64,000 bases of DNA, from assembly GCA_019661785.1 (NCBI GenBank), contig JAIFWP010000002.1:161869-225868 (forward strand), written 5' to 3'. Both the position numbers and the translations under genes were made by a program. Below, piece after piece: positions 5,029 to 35,372 of the stretch; position 1 is the stretch's first letter, and every line of letters starts with the position of its first letter. Source of the stretch: Candidatus Parcubacteria bacterium. GTDB lineage: Bacteria; Patescibacteriota; Minisyncoccia; Phycocordibacterales; Zambryskibacteraceae. A model generated the notes under the pieces. The model was not told where the DNA came from. It worked only from the letters and a program-made list of their open reading frames with translations, and ran no database searches.

Positions 5029-5120
5029 GGAGACGTGTCAGAGTGGTCTATCGTACCTCTTTGCTAAAGAGGTGTGCCCTTTAAAAGGCACCGACGGTTC
5101 GAATCCGTCCGTCTCCGCCA
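5029..5120 (+). tRNA. tRNA-Ser(GCU), class II with a long variable arm; CCA encoded
   Basis: Acceptor GGAGACG/CGTCTCC, anticodon arm CCTCT-TTGCTAA-AGAGG, variable hairpin GTGCC...GGCAC and T-arm GACGG-TTCGAAT-CCGTC. Confidence 0.85.
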
Positions 5121-5204: not shown

Positions 5205-7046
5205 ATGCAATGGAACGAGCGACTTACGGAAAATATTATAAATGGCTGGCTTAATAAGGTAGGAATCACAGAAAAAGATGGTTTTTCTGTTGAGCAACAA
5301 CTTAGTTCTAATCCGAGGATAGAAAAACTTCTTAAAAATGCTAGTAAGTCTGGAAACGGTGTTGGAAAACCTGAGTTCATAATAACTAAAAATACTGAAC
5401 AGAATTTTATTTTAATAATTGAATGTAAGGCTGATCCAAAATTTCATGAGTCCAAAAATCACGATAAATACAAAGACTACGCAGTTGATGGAGTTCTGCT
5501 ATACGCTTCTTATCTCGCCAAAGAATTTAATGTCATTGCCGTAGCTGTAAGTGGACAAAAAGAAGCAGAAATTAAAATAGACACTTTTCTACATCCTCGA
5601 GGATCTCTTAGGGCAGCTCCCCTAAAAGAAGGTGCTAGAGGGACAGCAATAAGAGAGATTATATCCTGGACTGATTATATACGTCATGCCACTTATGATG
5701 AAAATCTGACTCGAGTACGTCGTGAAGATTTAGCCAGATTTTCCCGTGATCTTCATAACTACATGCGTGACTATGCAAAAATAACTGAAGCTGATAAGCC
5801 CTTGCTTGTCAGTGGTATTCTTATCGCACTAATGGATGATGGATTTAAAGTTTCCTATTCTAAGTATGAGGAAGGATCATTGGCGAAGAGAACATATGAG
5901 ACAGTTAGAGATATTATTAACTCCGCCCAACTCGGAATAAATCAGGAAGAAAAAAAAGATGCAATCATAAATTCTTTTAGCTTTATTAAGCATCATCCTG
6001 AATTAAAAAAGATAGATCCTGAAACTAAAGAATCGCCGTTGGCACATATAATTAAAGAGATTGATCTTGAGGTCAGACCTTTTACTGAGGATCATTATGA
6101 TTTTGATGTGATTGGAAGCTTCTATGCTGAATTTGTTCGTTATACTGGCGGAGACAAAAAAGGTCTTGGTATTGTACTAACACCCAAACATCTAACAGAT
6201 TTGTTTGCAGATCTTGCTGGAGTTAATAAGAACTCAACTATTTTAGATACGTGTGCTGGCACGGGGGGGTTTCTAATATCAGCCATGCAAAAGATGACCA
6301 AAAATGTCAGTGATCTTGAAAGAAAGAGAATTTTGAGTGATTCTCTTATCGGTATTGAACAAGAACCAAAAATGTTTGCCTTGGCGGTTTCTAACATGAT
6401 CCTGAGAGGAGACGGAAAGACTAATCTTTATCAAGGATCATGTTTTGACGAGGATATTATTGGTCCCCTACGTGGTAAGGCAACGGTTGGATTTATTAAT
6501 CCCCCTTATTCTCAAAAAGGAAAAGCACTTCATGAATGGAATTTTATTGAAACTTTGTTGGATTCCTTGCAAGAAAATGCTACAGGAATTGTTGTGGTGC
6601 CGATGTCTTTATCAATTGCTCCTCATCCGACTCGACAAAAAATTTTGATTAATCATAGGCTGGAAGCTGTAATGAGTATGCCGGATGATTTATTTTATCC
6701 AGTAGGTGTCGTGTCGTGTATTATGGTTTTCACGGCGCACAAACCGCACGATAGTGAGCCAAGGCACGAGAGTTGGTTTGGTTATTGGAAAGACGATGGT
6801 TTTATAAAGGATCGCTTACAAGGCAGAATTCCCACGTCTAGATGGCCACTGATACGCGAAAAATGGCTTAACACTTTTTCTAAAAGAGAAGTGATCCCAG
6901 GTTTTAGCGTACGCAAAAAAGTAGATGGAAATGATGAATGGTGCGCAGAAGCTTATCTAGAAACAGACTACTCTTCAATAAAAGAAGAGGATTTTGAAGA
7001 TTTAATTAAGAGATACATTTTATTTAAAACCCTTAGTAATAGGTAA
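5205..7046 (+). CDS. Type IIB (BcgI-like) restriction-modification enzyme: N-terminal PD-(D/E)xK endonuclease fused to a gamma-class N6-adenine DNA methyltransferase
   Basis: N-terminus GKPEFIIT...ILIIECKAD (PE...ECK nuclease motif). The C-terminal half has AdoMet motif I (LDTCAGTGGFL) and motif IV (NPPY). 613 aa is close to BcgIA. AT-rich codon usage. Confidence 0.75.
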   Translation: MQWNERLTENIINGWLNKVGITEKDGFSVEQQLSSNPRIEKLLKNASKSGNGVGKPEFIITKNTEQNFILIIECKADPKFHESKNHDKYKDYAVDGVLLYASYLAKEFNVIAVAVSGQKEAEIKIDTFLHPRGSLRAAPLKEGARGTAIREIISWTDYIRHATYDENLTRVRREDLARFSRDLHNYMRDYAKITEADKPLLVSGILIALMDDGFKVSYSKYEEGSLAKRTYETVRDIINSAQLGINQEEKKDAIINSFSFIKHHPELKKIDPETKESPLAHIIKEIDLEVRPFTEDHYDFDVIGSFYAEFVRYTGGDKKGLGIVLTPKHLTDLFADLAGVNKNSTILDTCAGTGGFLISAMQKMTKNVSDLERKRILSDSLIGIEQEPKMFALAVSNMILRGDGKTNLYQGSCFDEDIIGPLRGKATVGFINPPYSQKGKALHEWNFIETLLDSLQENATGIVVVPMSLSIAPHPTRQKILINHRLEAVMSMPDDLFYPVGVVSCIMVFTAHKPHDSEPRHESWFGYWKDDGFIKDRLQGRIPTSRWPLIREKWLNTFSKREVIPGFSVRKKVDGNDEWCAEAYLETDYSSIKEEDFEDLIKRYILFKTLSNR

Positions 7047-7047
7047 T

Positions 7048-8007
7048 ATGGAATTAACACCTCTAAACACAATTTTTGACATTGAGTATGGAAATAAATT
7101 CGATCTGAATAAAATGATTATTAAAGATAAAAGCAAGATAGCTTTTGTGGGGCGTACAGAAAAAAATAATGGTGTTACGGCGTATGTTGAAGAGGTGTCT
7201 GGGATAAGTCCATATGATCCAGGTTTCATAACTGTCGCTCTCGGCGGTGCAATTCTTGAGTCTAATCTCCAGCCATTCCCTTTTTATACGGCGCAGAATG
7301 TTGCAGTTTTAAAACCTAAAAATACAATGAGTGACGAAGAGAAACTTTTCTATGCTTTTGCTATTGAAGCTAACAAATTCAGATATGGCGCCTTTGGTAG
7401 AGAGGCTAATCGTTCCTTGAGAACGCTTCTTGTTCCGAAGTCTATTCCCAAGATGTTTATGAAGAAGAGTAATTTTGAACCATCTAATGAATCTATATTA
7501 TTCCCAAGGGAGGTGACATTTCCACCTACTTTATGGAAATCATTCAAGTACAAAGATATATTTGATATCCAAACTGGTATTGGTCCATTAGTAAAATCAA
7601 GAACAATCGAGAATGGAGCAGTCCCTTTTGTGTCTACAACATCTGAGAGTAATGGTTTCTCTTACTATTATGCTGGTCCTGCAAAACATGCCGCAAATCT
7701 CATAACCGTGAGTAATGATGGATCTGTAGGAGAAGCTTTCTATCAAGATAAACCATTTTCTGCCAGCTATAAGGTTAATATTTTAGCTCCAAAATTTGAA
7801 CTTAATTTGTATAGGGCATTATTTTTGAACGCGATCATTAGAAAAGAAAAATATCGTTATTCATACGGACGCAAGTGGGGACTAGATAGAATGAAGGAAT
7901 CAATAATGAAATTGCCAGCATGTCCAAATGGGAGTCCTGATTGGAAATATATGGAAGATTATATAAAGTCTCTGCCGTATACCAAGACTTTGCTCAGCTA
8001 CGTTTAA
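7048..8007 (+). CDS. Restriction-modification specificity (S) subunit with two TRD-like halves (BcgIB-like)
   Basis: Starts 2 nt after the RM gene. Internal duplication (FDIEYGNKF... / FDIQTGIGP...) and HsdS-like conserved linkers (LLVPKSIP..., IMKLPA). Confidence 0.65.
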   Translation: MELTPLNTIFDIEYGNKFDLNKMIIKDKSKIAFVGRTEKNNGVTAYVEEVSGISPYDPGFITVALGGAILESNLQPFPFYTAQNVAVLKPKNTMSDEEKLFYAFAIEANKFRYGAFGREANRSLRTLLVPKSIPKMFMKKSNFEPSNESILFPREVTFPPTLWKSFKYKDIFDIQTGIGPLVKSRTIENGAVPFVSTTSESNGFSYYYAGPAKHAANLITVSNDGSVGEAFYQDKPFSASYKVNILAPKFELNLYRALFLNAIIRKEKYRYSYGRKWGLDRMKESIMKLPACPNGSPDWKYMEDYIKSLPYTKTLLSYV

Positions 8008-8109
8008 ATTAAAGATTTTAATCTGTAATATTAAATTAAGTACATCAAATTTTATAAATTTCGAACGCCTTGAAAGATTAAAGGTTTTGTTGTAGTTTTG
8101 GTTGAATAA

Positions 8110-8976
8110 ATGACCTCACAACTTTTTCCAGAAGCAGCTCTCCCACAGTATCTTTTGGATATTTATTTCCAAGGGCCATCTTTTAACGGAATGATGGAGA
8201 TTGATTCCCTCGCCAAAGAGGTTCAAGGCTTAGAGACTGTGTTGAGAATTGCGTTGCATTCCCTGATAAAAAATAAAAGGCTTAATCTGAAAAGTGGGGA
8301 CTTGGAAATTTATGTTGAGGCATTTGAGAAGGGATCATTTCGAAAAAGAATAAAAGTTTTTAATAGGACAACAAAAGAATATGTGCCTCTAGTTAGTTTG
8401 GCAACATTAGTTGTCTTGATATTCCAAACGATCCCTCAATATAAAACAGAGGAGATAAAAACTTTGTCTCCAGAGCTAATTGCTTCAGTGAGAGATCAGG
8501 TAGTGTTAGAACTATTGCAGGATAAGAAGTTTTTGGGTGCAGCGGCTGATATTGTACAGCCTATATCGCTTGGAGGTGATATGTGCACTTTGTCTTCAGC
8601 CGTTGACAATAAAGCCGTGATTGATTCCGAAACTAGTAAGAAGTTTATTAATTTAACTGATTCTGCTGAGAGTTCAGTTGATGATGGGGAATATTATGAA
8701 GTATTGCAGGGAAGAATAAACAGGGTGGATCTGGATGCTTCAAGAAGGCATATAGGATTTAAGGTCAATAGTGAGGGAGCGACAATTGATGCAACATTTC
8801 AAAATAAGCCATCTCCCGAAGAAATGAAGTCTTTGCTTGGTGAGTGGGTGGAAATCAAAGGTAATGTTTCGTATATAGGCGGCCAAAGAAGTCATGTGGA
8901 TATCTCTGAATTTAATGTAATCAAACAGAGGCAATTTGATATGCATTCTGATCAATCAGATAATCCCAAAAAATAA
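8110..8976 (+). CDS. Hypothetical protein (288 aa) in the AT-rich island
   Basis: Long clean ORF with AT-rich composition like the RM genes. No recognizable motifs. Confidence 0.55.
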   Translation: MTSQLFPEAALPQYLLDIYFQGPSFNGMMEIDSLAKEVQGLETVLRIALHSLIKNKRLNLKSGDLEIYVEAFEKGSFRKRIKVFNRTTKEYVPLVSLATLVVLIFQTIPQYKTEEIKTLSPELIASVRDQVVLELLQDKKFLGAAADIVQPISLGGDMCTLSSAVDNKAVIDSETSKKFINLTDSAESSVDDGEYYEVLQGRINRVDLDASRRHIGFKVNSEGATIDATFQNKPSPEEMKSLLGEWVEIKGNVSYIGGQRSHVDISEFNVIKQRQFDMHSDQSDNPKK

Positions 8977-12716: not shown

Positions 12717-13829
12717 ATGTCACTCTTTGGCTCCACTTTCGGCAACCTTTTTGGCAAGAAGGAGGTTCCGAGCGTACTCGGTGTGGACATCGGCTCCTCG
12801 GCTATAAAGATAGTCCAACTAAGGAAGAAGAACGGTCAAGCCGTGCTCGAGACCTACGGCGAGCTCGCTCTTGGTCCGTATGGCGCGTCCGCCATCGGCC
12901 AGTCGGTGCAATTGCCGACGGAGAAGATTATTGAAGCTCTCTCAGACCTTATGAAGGAGAAGGAGGTCAACGTCACAACGCGCCTCGCCGGACTCTCCAT
13001 ACCCTTCAGCTCCTCGCTCATGTCGGTCATCGAGCTCCCGGCAGTCTCCGACAAGCAGCTCGCGACCATGGTCCCTCTCGAGGCCCGCAAGTATATACCC
13101 GTACCGATAAACGAAGTCATGCTCGACTGGTCAGTTATCCCTAAGACCGACAGCAGAGACGATGACGCAGTCGCTGAAGGGATGCAAAAGAAGGTTGAGG
13201 TCCTCGTCGTCGCCATCCACAACGACACCATATCCAAGTACCAGCAGATTGTGGAGAAGACGGGTCTCCAGGCAGGCTTCTTCGAGATAGAGATATTCTC
13301 CACTATGCGCTCCGTAGTCGAGGAGAGTCTGACGCCAACTATGATAATGGACTTTGGCGCGGCGTCGACCAAGCTATACATCATTGAGCGCGGGGTTATC
13401 AAGTCATCGCACACTGTTAACCGCGGCTCGCAAGACATCACTGCGGCCATAGCGGGCTCACTCGGCATACCAGTAGAGCGAGCAGAGATGATGAAGCGCG
13501 AGGTCGGCGCAAGCGGCTCGGACCAAACATTGCGTCAGATTATTACTCTCGTCCTCGACTACATCTTTGCCGAGGCTAATCGCTCTCTCTTAGGATTTGA
13601 GAAGAAGTACAATAGGACAGTGGGCAAAGTAATACTCGTCGGCGGAGGAGCCTCGCTCAAGGGTCTAGCAGAGCTCGCCAAGAACGCCTTCAAGACCGAG
13701 GCCGTGCAAGGCAACCCCTTCGGCAAGCTATCGACCCCGGCATTTATAGAGAAGGTCCTCCGCGAGACTGGTCCTGAGTTCGCCGTCTGCATCGGCGCCG
13801 CTTTAAGGAAGCTCCAAGACGAAGGATAA
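12717..13829 (+). CDS. pilM: Type IV pilus assembly protein PilM (actin-like ATPase)
   Basis: N-terminus FGKKEVPSVLGVDIGSSAIKIVQL is typical of PilM; 370 aa. Confidence 0.85.
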   Translation: MSLFGSTFGNLFGKKEVPSVLGVDIGSSAIKIVQLRKKNGQAVLETYGELALGPYGASAIGQSVQLPTEKIIEALSDLMKEKEVNVTTRLAGLSIPFSSSLMSVIELPAVSDKQLATMVPLEARKYIPVPINEVMLDWSVIPKTDSRDDDAVAEGMQKKVEVLVVAIHNDTISKYQQIVEKTGLQAGFFEIEIFSTMRSVVEESLTPTMIMDFGAASTKLYIIERGVIKSSHTVNRGSQDITAAIAGSLGIPVERAEMMKREVGASGSDQTLRQIITLVLDYIFAEANRSLLGFEKKYNRTVGKVILVGGGASLKGLAELAKNAFKTEAVQGNPFGKLSTPAFIEKVLRETGPEFAVCIGAALRKLQDEG

Positions 13830-13834
13830 CTATT

Positions 13835-14743
13835 ATGCACTGGTTCTTTATTGCCCTGGCGGCACCGGCTTTGTGGAGTGTCTCAAACCATATTGATAAG
13901 TTTGTCATAAGCAACTATTTCTCAGGCAAGGGAGTTGGATCTCTTGTGCTTTTTACAGCTCTTGGCGGAAGTTTGGTGGCTATCCTTATAGCGATATTTA
14001 GTAATGCGTCCTTCAACCTCGGAAGCGCACATATTTTAGTCATTGCTCTAAGCGGGGCGATTCTCGTTGCTGCATTTATTCCGTATCTCCATGCGCTTGA
14101 GATTGATGAAGCCTCCTATGTTACAGCGCTCTTCCAGATGATTCCTGTGTTCGGCTATGTTTTAGCGTTTCTATTTTTAGGGGAGAATCTCAGTGTCGCT
14201 CAGACAATTGGTTCAGCCTTAATCATTGGGGCATCAATCTTCATGTCGCTCGACTTGTCTGAGCACATACGCATCAGGATGAAGCCGCTTCTTCTCATGA
14301 TGCTCTCGTCCTTGATGATATCCCTTAACGCTTTGTTGTTTAAAGTTATTGCTCTGGATGAGAGTTTCTGGGGCACGGCATTCTGGGAGTATGTAGGTGC
14401 CGGAGTGTTCGGCCTGTTGCTCTTCGTGCTGTACCCGCTCTACAGGACTCAATTTCTCGCAACTCTCACGCGAAGTCGCTTTACGGTTTTAGGGTTGAAC
14501 ACATTTTCTGAATGTTTGAACATCGGCGCGAAGTTGTTGGCCAACTTTGCGAGTCTCCTTGCTCCTCTTGCCCTCGTGTGGGTCGTCAACGGTTTCCAGC
14601 CGCTTATCGTATTTCTGTACGGAGTTATTCTCACATTATTCATACCGAAATGGGGGACTGAAAATCTCAGCGCTAAAGTAATTTTGCAAAAATTGACCGG
14701 GATGGCGGTCATCTTTGTCGGAGTGGCCTTGCTCTTCGCCTAG
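13835..14743 (+). CDS. DMT/EamA-like 10-TM transporter
   Basis: Ten predicted TM helices in two EamA-like halves. Confidence 0.6.
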   Translation: MHWFFIALAAPALWSVSNHIDKFVISNYFSGKGVGSLVLFTALGGSLVAILIAIFSNASFNLGSAHILVIALSGAILVAAFIPYLHALEIDEASYVTALFQMIPVFGYVLAFLFLGENLSVAQTIGSALIIGASIFMSLDLSEHIRIRMKPLLLMMLSSLMISLNALLFKVIALDESFWGTAFWEYVGAGVFGLLLFVLYPLYRTQFLATLTRSRFTVLGLNTFSECLNIGAKLLANFASLLAPLALVWVVNGFQPLIVFLYGVILTLFIPKWGTENLSAKVILQKLTGMAVIFVGVALLFA

Positions 14744-14858
14744 AGTGTAAATACTTTTGTGCCCGCAAGCTCCAAGACGAAGGTTGACAGGTGACTAACT
14801 AAGTGCTATTACATAAGCGGATTGTTTCATCTGGCAACTTCTCACTGGAGAGTGCGTA

Positions 14859-15389
14859 ATGCGTATCCGAAGCTTTTTGGGTTCAGCCGCGCTGGTTCTT
14901 CTCGCGGCAGCGGCCGAAGGGCAGGCATTGCCTGCGGGTGTCATACTTGGCGCTGCGCAGCGTAAGGCGCAGAAGATGGCTGAGGCCGCGCCTGTGCACA
15001 GGGATACCGTGGCTGTGAAGGGCGGTCTCATGCTCGTCTGCGATGTGCAGCAGGCTGTCATAGCCGTGACCGGGTATCAGTATGCGGACGGTTCCAAGAT
15101 TCTGGCGAGTGCGTCGGCGGGCATCACCTTCCTTCTCGTTGTGGACTCGGCCGGCAAGAGGCTCACTCTGCTCTCGCCCAAACCTATCCCCGTATGGAAG
15201 AATTCCGTGTACGCGGTGACTTATCATCCGCGAAGTGCAGTCGATCCGCTCGAGCTCATCGAGATATCGTCGCTCGTGTTTGATTTGAAAAGCCAAGGCA
15301 CCATCTTCGTCAATGGTATTTTGATGGGTGCCACGAGTATCGACGCAAAGGCCGATGCCATTATCCAGAAGGGAAGGTCTTGCCGTTAA
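14859..15389 (+). CDS. Secreted hypothetical protein (signal peptide); high-GC cassette gene
   Basis: GGAGAG RBS, signal peptide MRIRSFLGSAALVLLAAAA and visibly higher GC than its neighbors. Confidence 0.55.
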   Translation: MRIRSFLGSAALVLLAAAAEGQALPAGVILGAAQRKAQKMAEAAPVHRDTVAVKGGLMLVCDVQQAVIAVTGYQYADGSKILASASAGITFLLVVDSAGKRLTLLSPKPIPVWKNSVYAVTYHPRSAVDPLELIEISSLVFDLKSQGTIFVNGILMGATSIDAKADAIIQKGRSCR

Positions 15390-15399
15390 GTTCTCTGTA

Positions 15400-15431
15400 C
15401 CCGCCCCGATGAAAATCGGGGCGGTTCTTCA
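15400..15431 (+). terminator. Intrinsic terminator CCCGCCCCGAT-GAAAA-TCGGGGCGG plus a T-tract (copy 1)
   Basis: A GC-rich hairpin of at least 10 bp followed by TTCTTC. An identical copy sits at 16136. Confidence 0.7.
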
Positions 15432-15520
15432 TAAATTTGATTTCTTTTATCCAAAAGCGCATAGTCAGAGCGCGGGCGAAAGATAGTACCCCGTGTGTAC
15501 CTTTAGTATAGGAGCTGACC

Positions 15521-16132
15521 ATGTCTACAGGCATGCTCGGCAGGGTGTCGCTCTCTGACCTTCAGGGACCGATGAATGATTTGATGGAAAAGTTGGCGGG
15601 GCCAAATGGTCATCGGTGGCTGAGGGAACTGAACAGATTCCTCAGGCGGCAGGGGACCTGGACCTCGCTCTTGCCTCTCGTTGTCGAGTCCGATGGCAAC
15701 TCGGGAGAGGACTACATCCGCTATCTTGCGCGTAACTGGGAGCTTAACAATCACGCCAAGCAGGCGATTCTCTCACCTGAGTTTGTCGTCACCAGAGACG
15801 TGAAGTATGAGATTCAGCTTCTGATGCGCTCTGACTTCGACGTCTTGCCCACTAGCAAGAGTGTCTATCAGGTAGCGGCGGGGCGTGGCTACAAGCCTGC
15901 GCCGCTTGAAGTTGGCCCCCTGCTCAGGAGCATGATGAGGCGGAACGATTTCAAGAAGCTCGGCATCCAATGCATCGTCGTCATGCAGCCCGAGGAGATA
16001 CTGACGGCTCGGTTCTATATCGGTATGGACGATACCCTGAGCGTGGTCGCGCCGGGAGCTGAAAAGAGATGGTCCAACGATACTGCCTGGGCGTTCGTCG
16101 CTCCGGAAGAAGATGTGTACGTGCATGCGTAA
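15521..16132 (+). CDS. Hypothetical cytoplasmic protein (203 aa); high-GC cassette gene
   Basis: TAGGAG RBS and high GC; no family recognized. Confidence 0.55.
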   Translation: MSTGMLGRVSLSDLQGPMNDLMEKLAGPNGHRWLRELNRFLRRQGTWTSLLPLVVESDGNSGEDYIRYLARNWELNNHAKQAILSPEFVVTRDVKYEIQLLMRSDFDVLPTSKSVYQVAAGRGYKPAPLEVGPLLRSMMRRNDFKKLGIQCIVVMQPEEILTARFYIGMDDTLSVVAPGAEKRWSNDTAWAFVAPEEDVYVHA

Positions 16133-16135
16133 GCC

Positions 16136-16167
16136 CCCGCCCCGATGAAAATCGGGGCGGTTCTTTG
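16136..16167 (+). terminator. Intrinsic terminator, identical 30-nt copy of the 15400 element
   Basis: CCCGCCCCGATGAAAATCGGGGCGGTTCTT repeated exactly. Confidence 0.7.
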
Positions 16168-16222
16168 TATCTGTGTATATATAGATAGAAGTATTGGGGA
16201 ATCTCTTCTATAATTAAGCTAG

Positions 16223-16951
16223 ATGCAACCCCAGTTTCAATCATCATTCATCCCTAAAGGTCCGGTAGCTACTACTGGCACGGCCACTCGTGTCTCGCAA
16301 GGCGCAGACAGGAGCCTCCTTGGCACTCTAGCTGTCCTTGTTTTCGTTATATCGGTAGTCCTCTCCGTTGGCGTCTTCGGCTATGAGAAGTATCTTGACT
16401 CGCGCATCAACGCCATGAACGGCGACCTCGCCGCCGCCCGCGCGACGCTTAAGCCAGAAGTCATCACGGACATCTCCCGCCTCGACCAGCGACTCGTAGC
16501 AACGCAGGTGCTCCTCAATAAGCACATCGTCCTCTCGCCACTCTTCGACTACCTTGAGAACGCCACCTTGAAGGGTGTGCGCTTCACCGAGTTCCAATAT
16601 CTCACTACAGAACAGGGCCTCACTCTCAACATGCGCGGAGAGGCTAAGGGATACGCGGCAGTCTCCTTGCAGGCACAGGTCTTCAACAAGAGCCCTTACA
16701 TGAAGCAGCCTATCTTCTCTGACCTCGACCTCGACGACAAGGGCAATGTGACCTTCTCCTTCAAGGTGAAGCTCGACCCAAGCATCGTCTCGTACAAGAA
16801 GCTCGTTAACGATGTGCCTGCTGTCACACAAGTGCTCGTACCTGTCTCTCAGCCAGTGACAACTGTTGCGACTACGACTACCGATAAGACAACACAGAAG
16901 CAGACAGCCGCTTCGACCACAGCTTCAACAACGAAGAAGACAAGCCAATAG
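16223..16951 (+). CDS. pilN: PilN-like type IV pilus assembly protein (TM plus coiled coil plus Thr-rich tail)
   Basis: Single TM helix followed by a periplasmic domain; lies between pilM and pilO. Confidence 0.6.
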   Translation: MQPQFQSSFIPKGPVATTGTATRVSQGADRSLLGTLAVLVFVISVVLSVGVFGYEKYLDSRINAMNGDLAAARATLKPEVITDISRLDQRLVATQVLLNKHIVLSPLFDYLENATLKGVRFTEFQYLTTEQGLTLNMRGEAKGYAAVSLQAQVFNKSPYMKQPIFSDLDLDDKGNVTFSFKVKLDPSIVSYKKLVNDVPAVTQVLVPVSQPVTTVATTTTDKTTQKQTAASTTASTTKKTSQ

Positions 16952-23398: not shown

Positions 23399-24023
23399 AA
23401 GATTTTTCGCTTCGCGCCGAGGATTTACCATCGTCGAGCTCATGGTCTCGGTCGGCATCATGGTGACCCTCTCAGGCCTCATCGCCTTCAACCAGTCGCA
23501 CTACACCTCAGGCGCTGAACTAAGGAACTTGGCCAACGACCTCTCGCTCTCGCTCCGCCAGGCTCAGGTCTATGGCATCTCGGTCAAGGAAGTCTCGCCT
23601 GGGTCAAATATCTTCAATGTCGGCTATGGGGTCGAGTTCAACATAACGAGCAACGGGAGCAATAGCTCTTATATCTTCTTCGCCGACAGAGGGGTGAAGA
23701 ACAGACTATACGACGATGGCTGGTCTTGCCCTATCGGAAGCGGTCTGGAGTGTCTCGACAAGGTAAGCATCTCCGGGGGCAACTATATAGAGTCACTTTG
23801 CGCCATAAGCGCTGGCGGAGCTAAGGTCTGCGGTTCTAGCAGGCTCGACATCACCTTCGTCCGTCCGGCGACGGAAGCGCATATAATATTTGACGGGGAT
23901 GCGGCAGGCTCGGCTGGATTAAGCGGAGCTTGCATCAAACTCACCTCGACCGAGGGTAAGTCGCACTGGGTGTCCGTCTTCGTGACGGGCCAGATATCGG
24001 TCGATAGCCCCGCCTGCATATGA
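23322..24023 (+). CDS. Minor pilin / pseudopilin (start uncertain; may be an internal TTG)
   Basis: RRGFTIVELMVSVGIMV prepilin motif. Confidence 0.7.
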   Translation: MPHSSSWALGAVYFSILISFISHRFKRFFASRRGFTIVELMVSVGIMVTLSGLIAFNQSHYTSGAELRNLANDLSLSLRQAQVYGISVKEVSPGSNIFNVGYGVEFNITSNGSNSSYIFFADRGVKNRLYDDGWSCPIGSGLECLDKVSISGGNYIESLCAISAGGAKVCGSSRLDITFVRPATEAHIIFDGDAAGSAGLSGACIKLTSTEGKSHWVSVFVTGQISVDSPACI

Positions 24024-35116: not shown

Positions 35117-35119
35117 ATT

Positions 35120-35277
35120 GCCAAGATAGCTCAGCCCCGACGAGCGAAGCTGTCGGGGAGCCGACCTTGCGTCGGCTTTGGTAGAGTTAGATAGTATTGC
35201 CAAGATAGCTCAGCCCCGACGAGCGAAGCTGTCGGGGAGCCGACCTTGCGTCGGCTTTGGTAGAGTTAGATAGTATT
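35120..35277 (+). repeat. Two tandem 79-bp direct repeats, each starting with the first 15 nt of tRNA-Thr(GGU) and carrying two GC-rich hairpins
   Basis: Unit: GCCAAGATAGCTCAG + CCCCGACGAGCGAAGCTGTCGGGGAGCCGACCTTGCGTCGGCT + TTGGTAGAG + TTAGATAGTATT. Copies at about 35120 and 35199; the intact tRNA begins at 35278. Confidence 0.8.
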
Positions 35278-35350
35278 GCCAAGATAGCTCAGTTGGTAGA
35301 GCACATCCATGGTAAGGATGAGGTCCCCGGTTCGATCCCGGGTCTTGGCT
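35278..35350 (+). tRNA. tRNA-Thr(GGU); CCA encoded at 35351-35353
   Basis: Acceptor GCCAAGA/TCTTGGC, anticodon loop ATGGTAA, T-arm CCCGG-TTCGATC-CCGGG. Confidence 0.85.
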
Positions 35351-35372
35351 CCAGGTCTGCTATACTCAGGTT

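Follow-up and report, generated by a model that had tools for sequence, protein, structure and literature searches.

As Guo et al. 2011 showed (PMC3240598), targets of diversity-generating retroelements (DGRs) need, 4-34 bp downstream of their variable region (VR), a hairpin or cruciform whose stem is GC-rich and 7-10 bp long and whose 4-nt sense-strand loop fits GRNA; changing that loop from GAAA to CTTT abolishes homing. Roux et al. 2021 (PMC8144416) describe the "clade 2" DGRs of the Candidate Phyla Radiation (CPR) as cellular, with targets that lack membrane segments and any recognisable domain; the VR classes of the "CPR set" are unclassified (Wu et al. 2018, PMC5758913). Here, we describe a locus that bears on these systems in a 64-kb stretch of DNA, called the window below, from the metagenome-assembled genome (MAG) of a Candidatus Parcubacteria bacterium (GCA_019661785.1, contig JAIFWP010000002.1, positions 161,869 to 225,868). 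Two open reading frames (ORFs), ORFA and ORFB, lie in a type IV pilus locus between pilM and pilN, and each is followed by the same 30-nt palindromic element (the 30-mer). The account that we consider probable is that the junction is a permissive slot in which genes have accreted, that ORFB is a solo copy of a DGR-target gene, and that the two terminators were copied on insertion.

ORFB belongs to a family of DGR targets

The original prediction recognised no family for either protein. This stands for Pfam, NCBIfam, PHROGs, PADLOC, and PDB, and in a word-indexed search of 5.8 billion proteins ORFA and ORFB each matched only themselves. It does not stand for ORFB: when 1.84 billion cluster representatives were scanned exhaustively with phmmer, 314 relatives were found at E ≤ 1e-3 and 22 at E ≤ 1e-10; membership in a DGR variable-protein family had been missed. 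The relatives are nearly all 200-220 aa long and share an N-terminal motif (MSxxMLG...GPxxDLxEKLxGxxGxxWLxxLKRFLRKExPW) and a C-terminal end (...RW....GFVFLVP). ORFB agrees with them in start and length (alignment A1), and a profile built from 43 relatives matched it over its full length (E 5e-61). It has neither a signal peptide nor a transmembrane segment. The named members all come from Patescibacteria and are annotated "hypothetical," and no relatives were found on viral contigs. The family itself had no match in Pfam, NCBIfam, or PDB, with the whole-family profile and the profile of the C-terminal half both negative against PDB and Pfam.

The genomic surroundings of the relatives, sampled as nine distinct contexts, gave the link to retroelements. 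In three of the nine, the target gene is followed by a pseudo-ORF, by bAvd on the opposite strand, and by an RVT_1 reverse transcriptase (RT), with Avd in the DGR-linked loci on the strand opposite both the target and the RT. The pseudo-ORF is the template repeat (TR), and it pairs with the final 131-141 nt of the target gene. Among the full DGRs, TR adenines account for 16 of the 16 VR/TR mismatches at locus L121, 23 of 26 at L138, and 10 of 13 at L124/125, where the other three lie at the extreme 3' end; at L137, a decayed DGR, they account for all 12. The translated TRs match family profile positions 165-209, and the variable region therefore corresponds to about residues 160-195 of ORFB. 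In these relatives, the C-terminal ~45 residues of the ORFB family are the DGR variable region.

Of the members sampled, about half are "solo," the genes at L122, L139/140, and L143 among them. Gene order at L141/142 follows that at L124/125 (Colicin_V, TP_methylase, target, ATP synthase), with TR, Avd, and RT missing, and L137 (2527-2943) has kept the TR and the C-terminal half of Avd only, the RT being gone. L124/125 compared with L141/142, together with L137, is a case of natural retroelement decay.

DGR-linked and solo members also share a conserved noncoding element past the stop codon (..CCCGCAAGTAG..TCCTTTGGAC..CCTTTGGTC..CCCTTGG..), which is followed by a terminator. The element has repeated CCTTTGG/CCCTTGG motifs and lies at 2609-2700 in L121, 8613-8700 in L124, 2255-2340 in L137, 8709-8800 in L138, and 8610-8700 in L141. 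After its terminator, a conserved ATGGTAGTAGGTGAATA box stands ahead of the TR in Patescibacteria DGR targets. The CCTTTGG-rich element and this box are possibly the target-recognition and TR-RNA start signals of the clade.

Separately, the solo member at L139/L140 (9996-16606) lies 1.4 kb upstream of two proteins of 614 and 3305 aa carrying T4SS_pilin (PF18895), Big_5, and VWA, another loose proximity of the ORFB family to surface-filament genes.

ORFB stands alone in the window

The searches for TR, RT, Avd, and 30-mer copies covered the positions of the window, and the Pfam screen for RT, integrase, and transposase took in its ORFs of at least 150 aa. With three RTs and one Avd from relatives as tblastn queries, no match was obtained in the 64 kb, and Pfam found no RVT_1 among the screened ORFs. 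Neither blastn nor an adenine-tolerant ungapped scan found a TR for the 3' end of ORFB (15900-16170) anywhere in the 64 kb, and a six-frame profile search of the window for a second family member matched ORFB only. Of the post-VR element of the family, ORFB retains a weak remnant (GCTCCGGAAGAAG), followed by eight further codons and then by the 30-mer. Because TR, RT, and Avd are absent from the window and ORFB lacks the family post-VR element, we regard ORFB as most likely no longer diversified. It is most likely a variable-type binding protein, with a presumed role in ligand binding, whose diversification has ceased (a "fossil"). A minority possibility is that ORFB still has a DGR serving it from another part of the genome.

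The two identical hairpins resemble terminators

As first noticed, an identical 30-mer (CCCGCCCCGATGAAAATCGGGGCGGTTCTT) follows each ORF; it occurs exactly twice in the window, and no such pair was expected from shuffled sequences. The elements are real, although the positions given earlier were one base off (corrected in Table 1). Each 30-mer is a 24-nt perfect palindrome that is predicted to fold into a 10-bp stem (8 GC pairs) with a GAAA loop (dG -21.8 kcal/mol, z -4.2 to -5.4), and each is followed by TTCTT, with the tails TTCTTCAT and TTCTTTGT. Perfect GC-rich hairpins whose stem reaches at least 8 bp number only nine in the 64 kb; all of them are unique except the 30-mer pair, and seven of these nine strong hairpins have 4-nt loops, GAGA among them. 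The exact 30-mer had no match in JGI metagenome contigs, nor the 24-mer in IMG/VR. When the loop was made degenerate (CCGCCCCGATNNNNATCGGGGCGG), at least 120 loci of reference genomes from many phyla proved to have the same 10-bp stem, with varied loops, at the ends of genes, often as bidirectional terminators made of an A-tract, the stem, and a T-tract. Both 30-mers are best read as putative intrinsic transcription terminators, and the identical "terminators" are ordinary ones.

Two genomes in this survey held several of the loci. In one Saccharibacteria MAG (L033, L043, L048, L059), the same stem ends at least four genes, each with a different loop. In the Ktedonobacter MAG DYIS01 (L017, L018, L020, L022, L064, L084, L119), the stem CCGCCCCGAT..ATCGGGGCGG is the core of a longer repeat (GATCCTCCCGCCCCGATCTGGATCGGGGCGGGAGGATC) that resembles repetitive extragenic palindromes (REP).

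The pilM-pilN junction is a permissive slot

The original prediction also took the block for an accessory insertion in the pilus locus. This was borne out by eleven metagenome loci with PilM relatives (ten at 50-73% identity and one, L135, at 31%), none of which has EamA, ORFA, or ORFB. In every one of these loci that reaches upstream of pilM, comF(-) adjoins pilM, and those reaching far enough downstream continue with pilN-pilO-orf96-pilB-(RR)-pilT; in the window, pilC, pilD, and pseudopilins follow past pilT. Five relatives show the junction itself (31-66% identity), with pilN either straight after pilM or after one small unrelated ORF. The gap from pilM to pilN is an empty 60 nt in L132, ~70 nt in L135, and ~170 nt in L130; it is filled by a 94-aa ORF with its own GC hairpin in L127 and by a different 78-aa ORF with a hairpin in L126, and these two small ORFs have no similarity to each other. 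The TATAAT box that had been proposed for pilN is indeed present just before its ATG, and such a box precedes the pilN ATG by ~8-14 nt in the window, L126, L127, L130, and L132. Its presence in most relatives makes the junction, therefore, an ancestral boundary between transcription units that tolerates self-terminated genes. In this clade, unrelated genes with hairpins of their own gather at the pilM-pilN junction, a permissive slot.

One further locus, L129 (PilM 68% identical), reads pilM, a promoter-like site, a 205-aa ORF (1149-1766, +) with no Pfam match, an IS200-like Y1_Tnp gene (1875-2543, -), and then adk-map-ndk in place of pilN. In its 3' flank, the 205-aa ORF has the conserved element of DGR targets (blastn match to L138 at E 9e-6; alignment A2). 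Comparison with ORFB did not establish homology between the proteins (BLASTP E 5.5, hhalign probability 2.6%), and the one shared feature is the 3' cis element.

ORFA and ORFB are native in composition

Both ORFs predicted at the outset, of 176 and 203 aa, are real genes on the + strand, and as stated then each has its own ribosome-binding site (RBS), a GGAG-type site 6-8 nt before the ATG; their description as separate, terminated units also fits what we found. A codon-usage log-likelihood trained on 21 native window genes gave frame 0 a score of +0.20 bits/codon for ORFA and +0.15 for ORFB, with the other frames below -0.6 and the antisense near 0; on the same score, pilN reached +0.44 and EamA +0.12 bits/codon. 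The block had been thought more GC-rich than the flanking pil genes. It is not, as GC and GC at third codon positions (GC3) of ORFA (0.576 and 0.661) and ORFB (0.562 and 0.706) match those of pilM (0.553 and 0.698), pilB (0.549 and 0.700), and pilT (0.572 and 0.726). A foreign origin argued from composition fails, the composition of both genes being native. The sole compositional outlier nearby is EamA (GC 0.470, GC3 0.548, against ~0.55 and ~0.70 for the pil genes).

ORFA had no match in Pfam, PADLOC, or PHROGs, and gave no more than sub-threshold Ig-like hints against PDB and phage genomes (E 0.03-0.4). Its N-terminus, MRIR followed by SFLGSAALVLLAAAA, resembles an ordinary Sec-type signal peptide as read from the sequence, and ORFA is an orphan protein with predicted secretion. 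It was also considered as a type IV pilin or minor pilin and rejected, as Pfam found no N_methyl (PF07963) in it and did find this domain in the ORFs at 24020 and 24577. Single-sequence AlphaFold models of the two proteins were unusable, with predicted local distance difference test (pLDDT) scores of 34 for ORFA and 33 (32.7) for ORFB. Profile searches of PDB and Pfam with alignments A1 and A3 likewise gave no match to a fold that would carry the VR, such as a C-type lectin or Ig-like one.

Direct repeats suggest how the slot was filled

Exact direct 17-mers in the window fall into four position groups only: the 30-mer pair, the pilM 3' end with a copy after EamA, a 79-nt tandem near tRNA-Thr, and the two tRNA-Thr genes. 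The repeat flanking EamA is exact over 17 nt and agrees at 20 of 22 positions overall, and the old TGA stop in the pilM relic after EamA overlaps a TTGACA -35-like box upstream of ORFA. This arrangement indicates a recent insertion of the single EamA gene exactly at the end of pilM. EamA and ORFB are single genes, each flanked by direct repeats in which the 3'-end signal of the preceding gene recurs, and both therefore appear to be insertion events that duplicated local sequence. We also asked whether ORFB had split the pilN promoter and left part of it behind the first 30-mer. This was rejected, as the local alignment score of 14 was no better than that of random window tiles.

Under the account that we favor, the slot would be a natural boundary between the pilM transcript and a separately promoted pilN-pilO-pilB-pilT unit, where independent single genes would accrete in a lineage-specific manner; its present contents would be a low-GC EamA, the orphan secreted ORFA, and the solo DGR-family ORFB. 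The first 30-mer would end a pilM-EamA-ORFA transcript, and the second would end the ORFB transcript and shield the pilN promoter from read-through. The terminator would have been copied when ORFB was inserted, which would explain the identity of the 30-mers and place ORFB between 30-bp direct repeats.

Several points weigh against this account. The terminator role of both hairpins is a prediction, and the mechanism of both direct-repeat-flanked insertions is a proposal of ours. The searches for TR, RT, Avd, and the 30-mer took in 64 kb of a contig of 236,464 bp, and a remote DGR or additional 30-mer copies may lie elsewhere in the MAG; ORFA and ORFB have no usable fold models (pLDDT 33-34). 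A DGR-target-like gene directly follows pilM in L129, so the location is perhaps not accidental. Finally, a hairpin ~30 nt past a VR-like segment, as the 30-mer is, fits the DGR target-site consensus (PMC3240598).

Table 1. Positions of the features between pilM and pilN (window coordinates)
Feature	Position	Strand	Remarks
pilM	12717..13829	+	Pfam PilM_2, E 6.8e-38; last conserved gene before the variable slot
Left direct-repeat copy, true pilM 3' end (..KLQDEG, stop)	13809..13830	+	Repeat family D6
EamA-type transporter gene	13835..14743	+	Pfam EamA, E 1.1e-8; starts 5 nt past the pilM stop
Right direct-repeat copy, pilM 3'-end relic with in-frame RKLQDEG-stop	14767..14788	+	
ORFA (MBX4198975.1, KW800_01715), 176 aa	14859..15389	+	
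30-mer copy 1, Rho-independent terminator-like hairpin	15400..15429	+	10 nt past the ORFA stop
ORFB (MBX4198976.1, KW800_01720), 203 aa	15521..16132	+	phmmer relatives, profile match
ORFB segment homologous to the family variable region (~residues 160-195)	15998..16105	+	Approximate boundaries
30-mer copy 2, terminator-like hairpin	16136..16165	+	3 nt past the ORFB stop
pilN TATAAT -10 box	16209..16214	+	8 nt upstream of the pilN ATG
pilN	16223..16951	+	First gene of the pilN-pilO-orf96-pilB-RR-pilT-pilC-pilD unit; Pfam PilN, PilO; T2SSF, Peptidase_A24, N_methyl further on; synteny

Alternative explanations

The last of these points leads to the alternative that fares best, one that we nevertheless hold to be unlikely: a DGR located elsewhere in the genome would actively diversify ORFB as a remote target, the GAAA hairpin would be the target-site hairpin or cruciform that directs cDNA homing, and the copy after ORFA would be a by-product or a second recognition site. 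ORFB does belong to a DGR-diversified family, and remote DGR targets are known and have been missed by surveys (PMC8144416, PMC5758913). However, the DGR-linked family members at L121, L124, L137, and L138 have no GRNA-loop hairpin; they carry instead the CCTTTGG-rich element that ORFB lacks. Loops of 4 nt are the norm among the window hairpins. The 3' end of ORFA has no similarity to the VR of ORFB, and ORFA and ORFB therefore cannot share a TR. Neither a TR nor an RT is present out to -15 kb and +48 kb, and the DGRs of CPR usually have one adjacent target, remote targets being reported only in another lineage (PMC5758913).

A related proposal, which we rate slightly lower still, is that the position after pilM repeatedly holds DGR-type variable genes (ORFB, the L129 ORF) tied functionally to the pilus, and that the GAAA hairpin lets a distant DGR rewrite ORFB. 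If this were true, ORFB would be a hypervariable binding protein, e.g., a specificity factor, cytoplasmic or associated with the pilus, by which these episymbionts recognise hosts or DNA, and the system would be the first remote-target DGR in CPR.

More doubtful is the possibility that the 30-mer is itself mobile or recombinogenic, a small palindrome (REP-like, of the miniature inverted-repeat transposable element (MITE) kind, or HUH/Y1-recognised) that spreads to gene ends and promotes the gene insertions. Perfect 30-bp direct repeats bracket ORFB, a REP-like family is built on the same stem in the Ktedonobacter MAG, and a Y1_Tnp gene lies beside the DGR-target-like ORF next to pilM in L129, with another ~5.7 kb downstream of the target in L141/142. 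Yet the 64 kb hold only two copies of the 30-mer, adjacent to each other, Pfam showed no Y1_Tnp, integrase, or transposase among the window ORFs of at least 150 aa, and no exact copies were found in JGI metagenome contigs or IMG/VR.

An integron-like cassette array with the palindrome as a short attC, the likeness drawn in the original prediction, is very improbable. The modular layout of ORF, palindrome, ORF, palindrome recalls cassettes, and the slot genes do differ between relatives. However, no integrase and no tyrosine recombinase was found among the ORFs of at least 150 aa in the 64 kb, no attC core was seen, and there are two copies only. An attC is an imperfect, bulged palindrome of 57-141 nt with R''/L''/L'/R' sites and a GTTRRRY core; the 30-mer forms a perfect 24-nt hairpin, its tail is T-rich, and GGTTCTT in its flank departs from GTTRRRY. 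Normally, attC sites differ between cassettes, which counts against an integron here, and the slot genes of the relatives end in unrelated hairpins.

We see hardly better prospects for the idea, also raised earlier, that a secreted ORFA and a cytoplasmic ORFB form an effector-immunity or toxin-antitoxin pair: the two do adjoin and are both unannotated, but neither has a toxin, immunity, or defence match (Pfam, PADLOC, PHROGs), a strong putative terminator and 91 nt separate them, an ORFA-like partner gene is present in none of the nine distinct contexts of ORFB relatives, and the ORFB family has another known association, with DGRs. Nor does an assembly artefact, in which a false join or a strain chimera at a short repeat duplicated the 30-mer, seem at all probable, even if the source is a MAG and each sequence is on a single contig only, since a 30-nt repeat is below the usual final assembly k-mers, coherent coding sequence of native composition with proper RBSs flanks both 30-mers, and the start and length of ORFB match its family.

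Other features of the window

By Pfam, the window ORFs of at least 150 aa are housekeeping and pilus genes, and Rfam found tRNAs only. A perfect 79-nt tandem duplication lies at 35117-35274, upstream of tRNA-Thr(GGT) (35278-35353). In each unit, the first 15 nt of tRNA-Thr are followed by a 43-nt insert with two GC hairpins, by the 9 nt that come next in the tRNA (TTGGTAGAG), and by another 12 nt. The intact tRNA-Thr comes directly after the tandem, and Rfam and ARAGORN call the intact tRNA only. A low-GC island at 5205-8976, right after tRNA-Ser (5029-5120), has a GC of 0.36-0.38 and a GC3 of ~0.3, compared with ~0.53 and ~0.65 elsewhere. Its genes are for the methylase (N6_Mtase) and the specificity subunit (Methylase_S) of a type I restriction-modification system and for a 288-aa protein with no assignment, and it was probably acquired horizontally.

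Significance and comparison with known systems

The analysis places MBX4198976.1 (ORFB) and a family of at least 314 clusters, all outside Pfam and NCBIfam, in a recognisable class, the DGR targets of Patescibacteria. The solo members, about half of those sampled, are copies left after retroelement loss, which one syntenic pair with and without Avd-RT shows directly. If remote diversification or the link to the pilus were true, the locus would bear on partner recognition by genome-reduced episymbionts.

Compared with integron cassettes, the window has single-gene modules that look independent of promoters and each carry a palindrome, in a slot of varying content. It differs in that each gene has its own RBS and apparent promoter, with no IntI among the window ORFs of at least 150 aa and no attI. 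The likeness to the target hairpin of Bordetella phage BPP-1 and other phage DGRs lies in the GC-rich 10-bp stem, the sense-strand GAAA loop, and the position, a few tens of nt past a VR-type segment; in contrast to that hairpin, an identical copy follows ORFA, a gene with no VR, and the 30-mer has a T-rich tail and the features of the ordinary terminators of this genome.

To the DGR targets of CPR, ORFB is a full-length homologue, likewise with no recognisable domain, signal peptide, or transmembrane segment. Unlike them, it has no TR, Avd, or RT in the 64 kb and no family post-VR element, it bears an 8-codon C-terminal extension, and it lies in a type IV pilus locus. From typical intrinsic terminators, the two hairpins differ in a U-tract that is short and interrupted (UUCUU) and in the 30/30 identical copy, loop and flanks included, that two neighbouring genes share. 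They resemble such terminators in having a stable GC-rich stem-loop with a TTCTT(T) tail, 3-10 nt past the stop codon on the coding strand.

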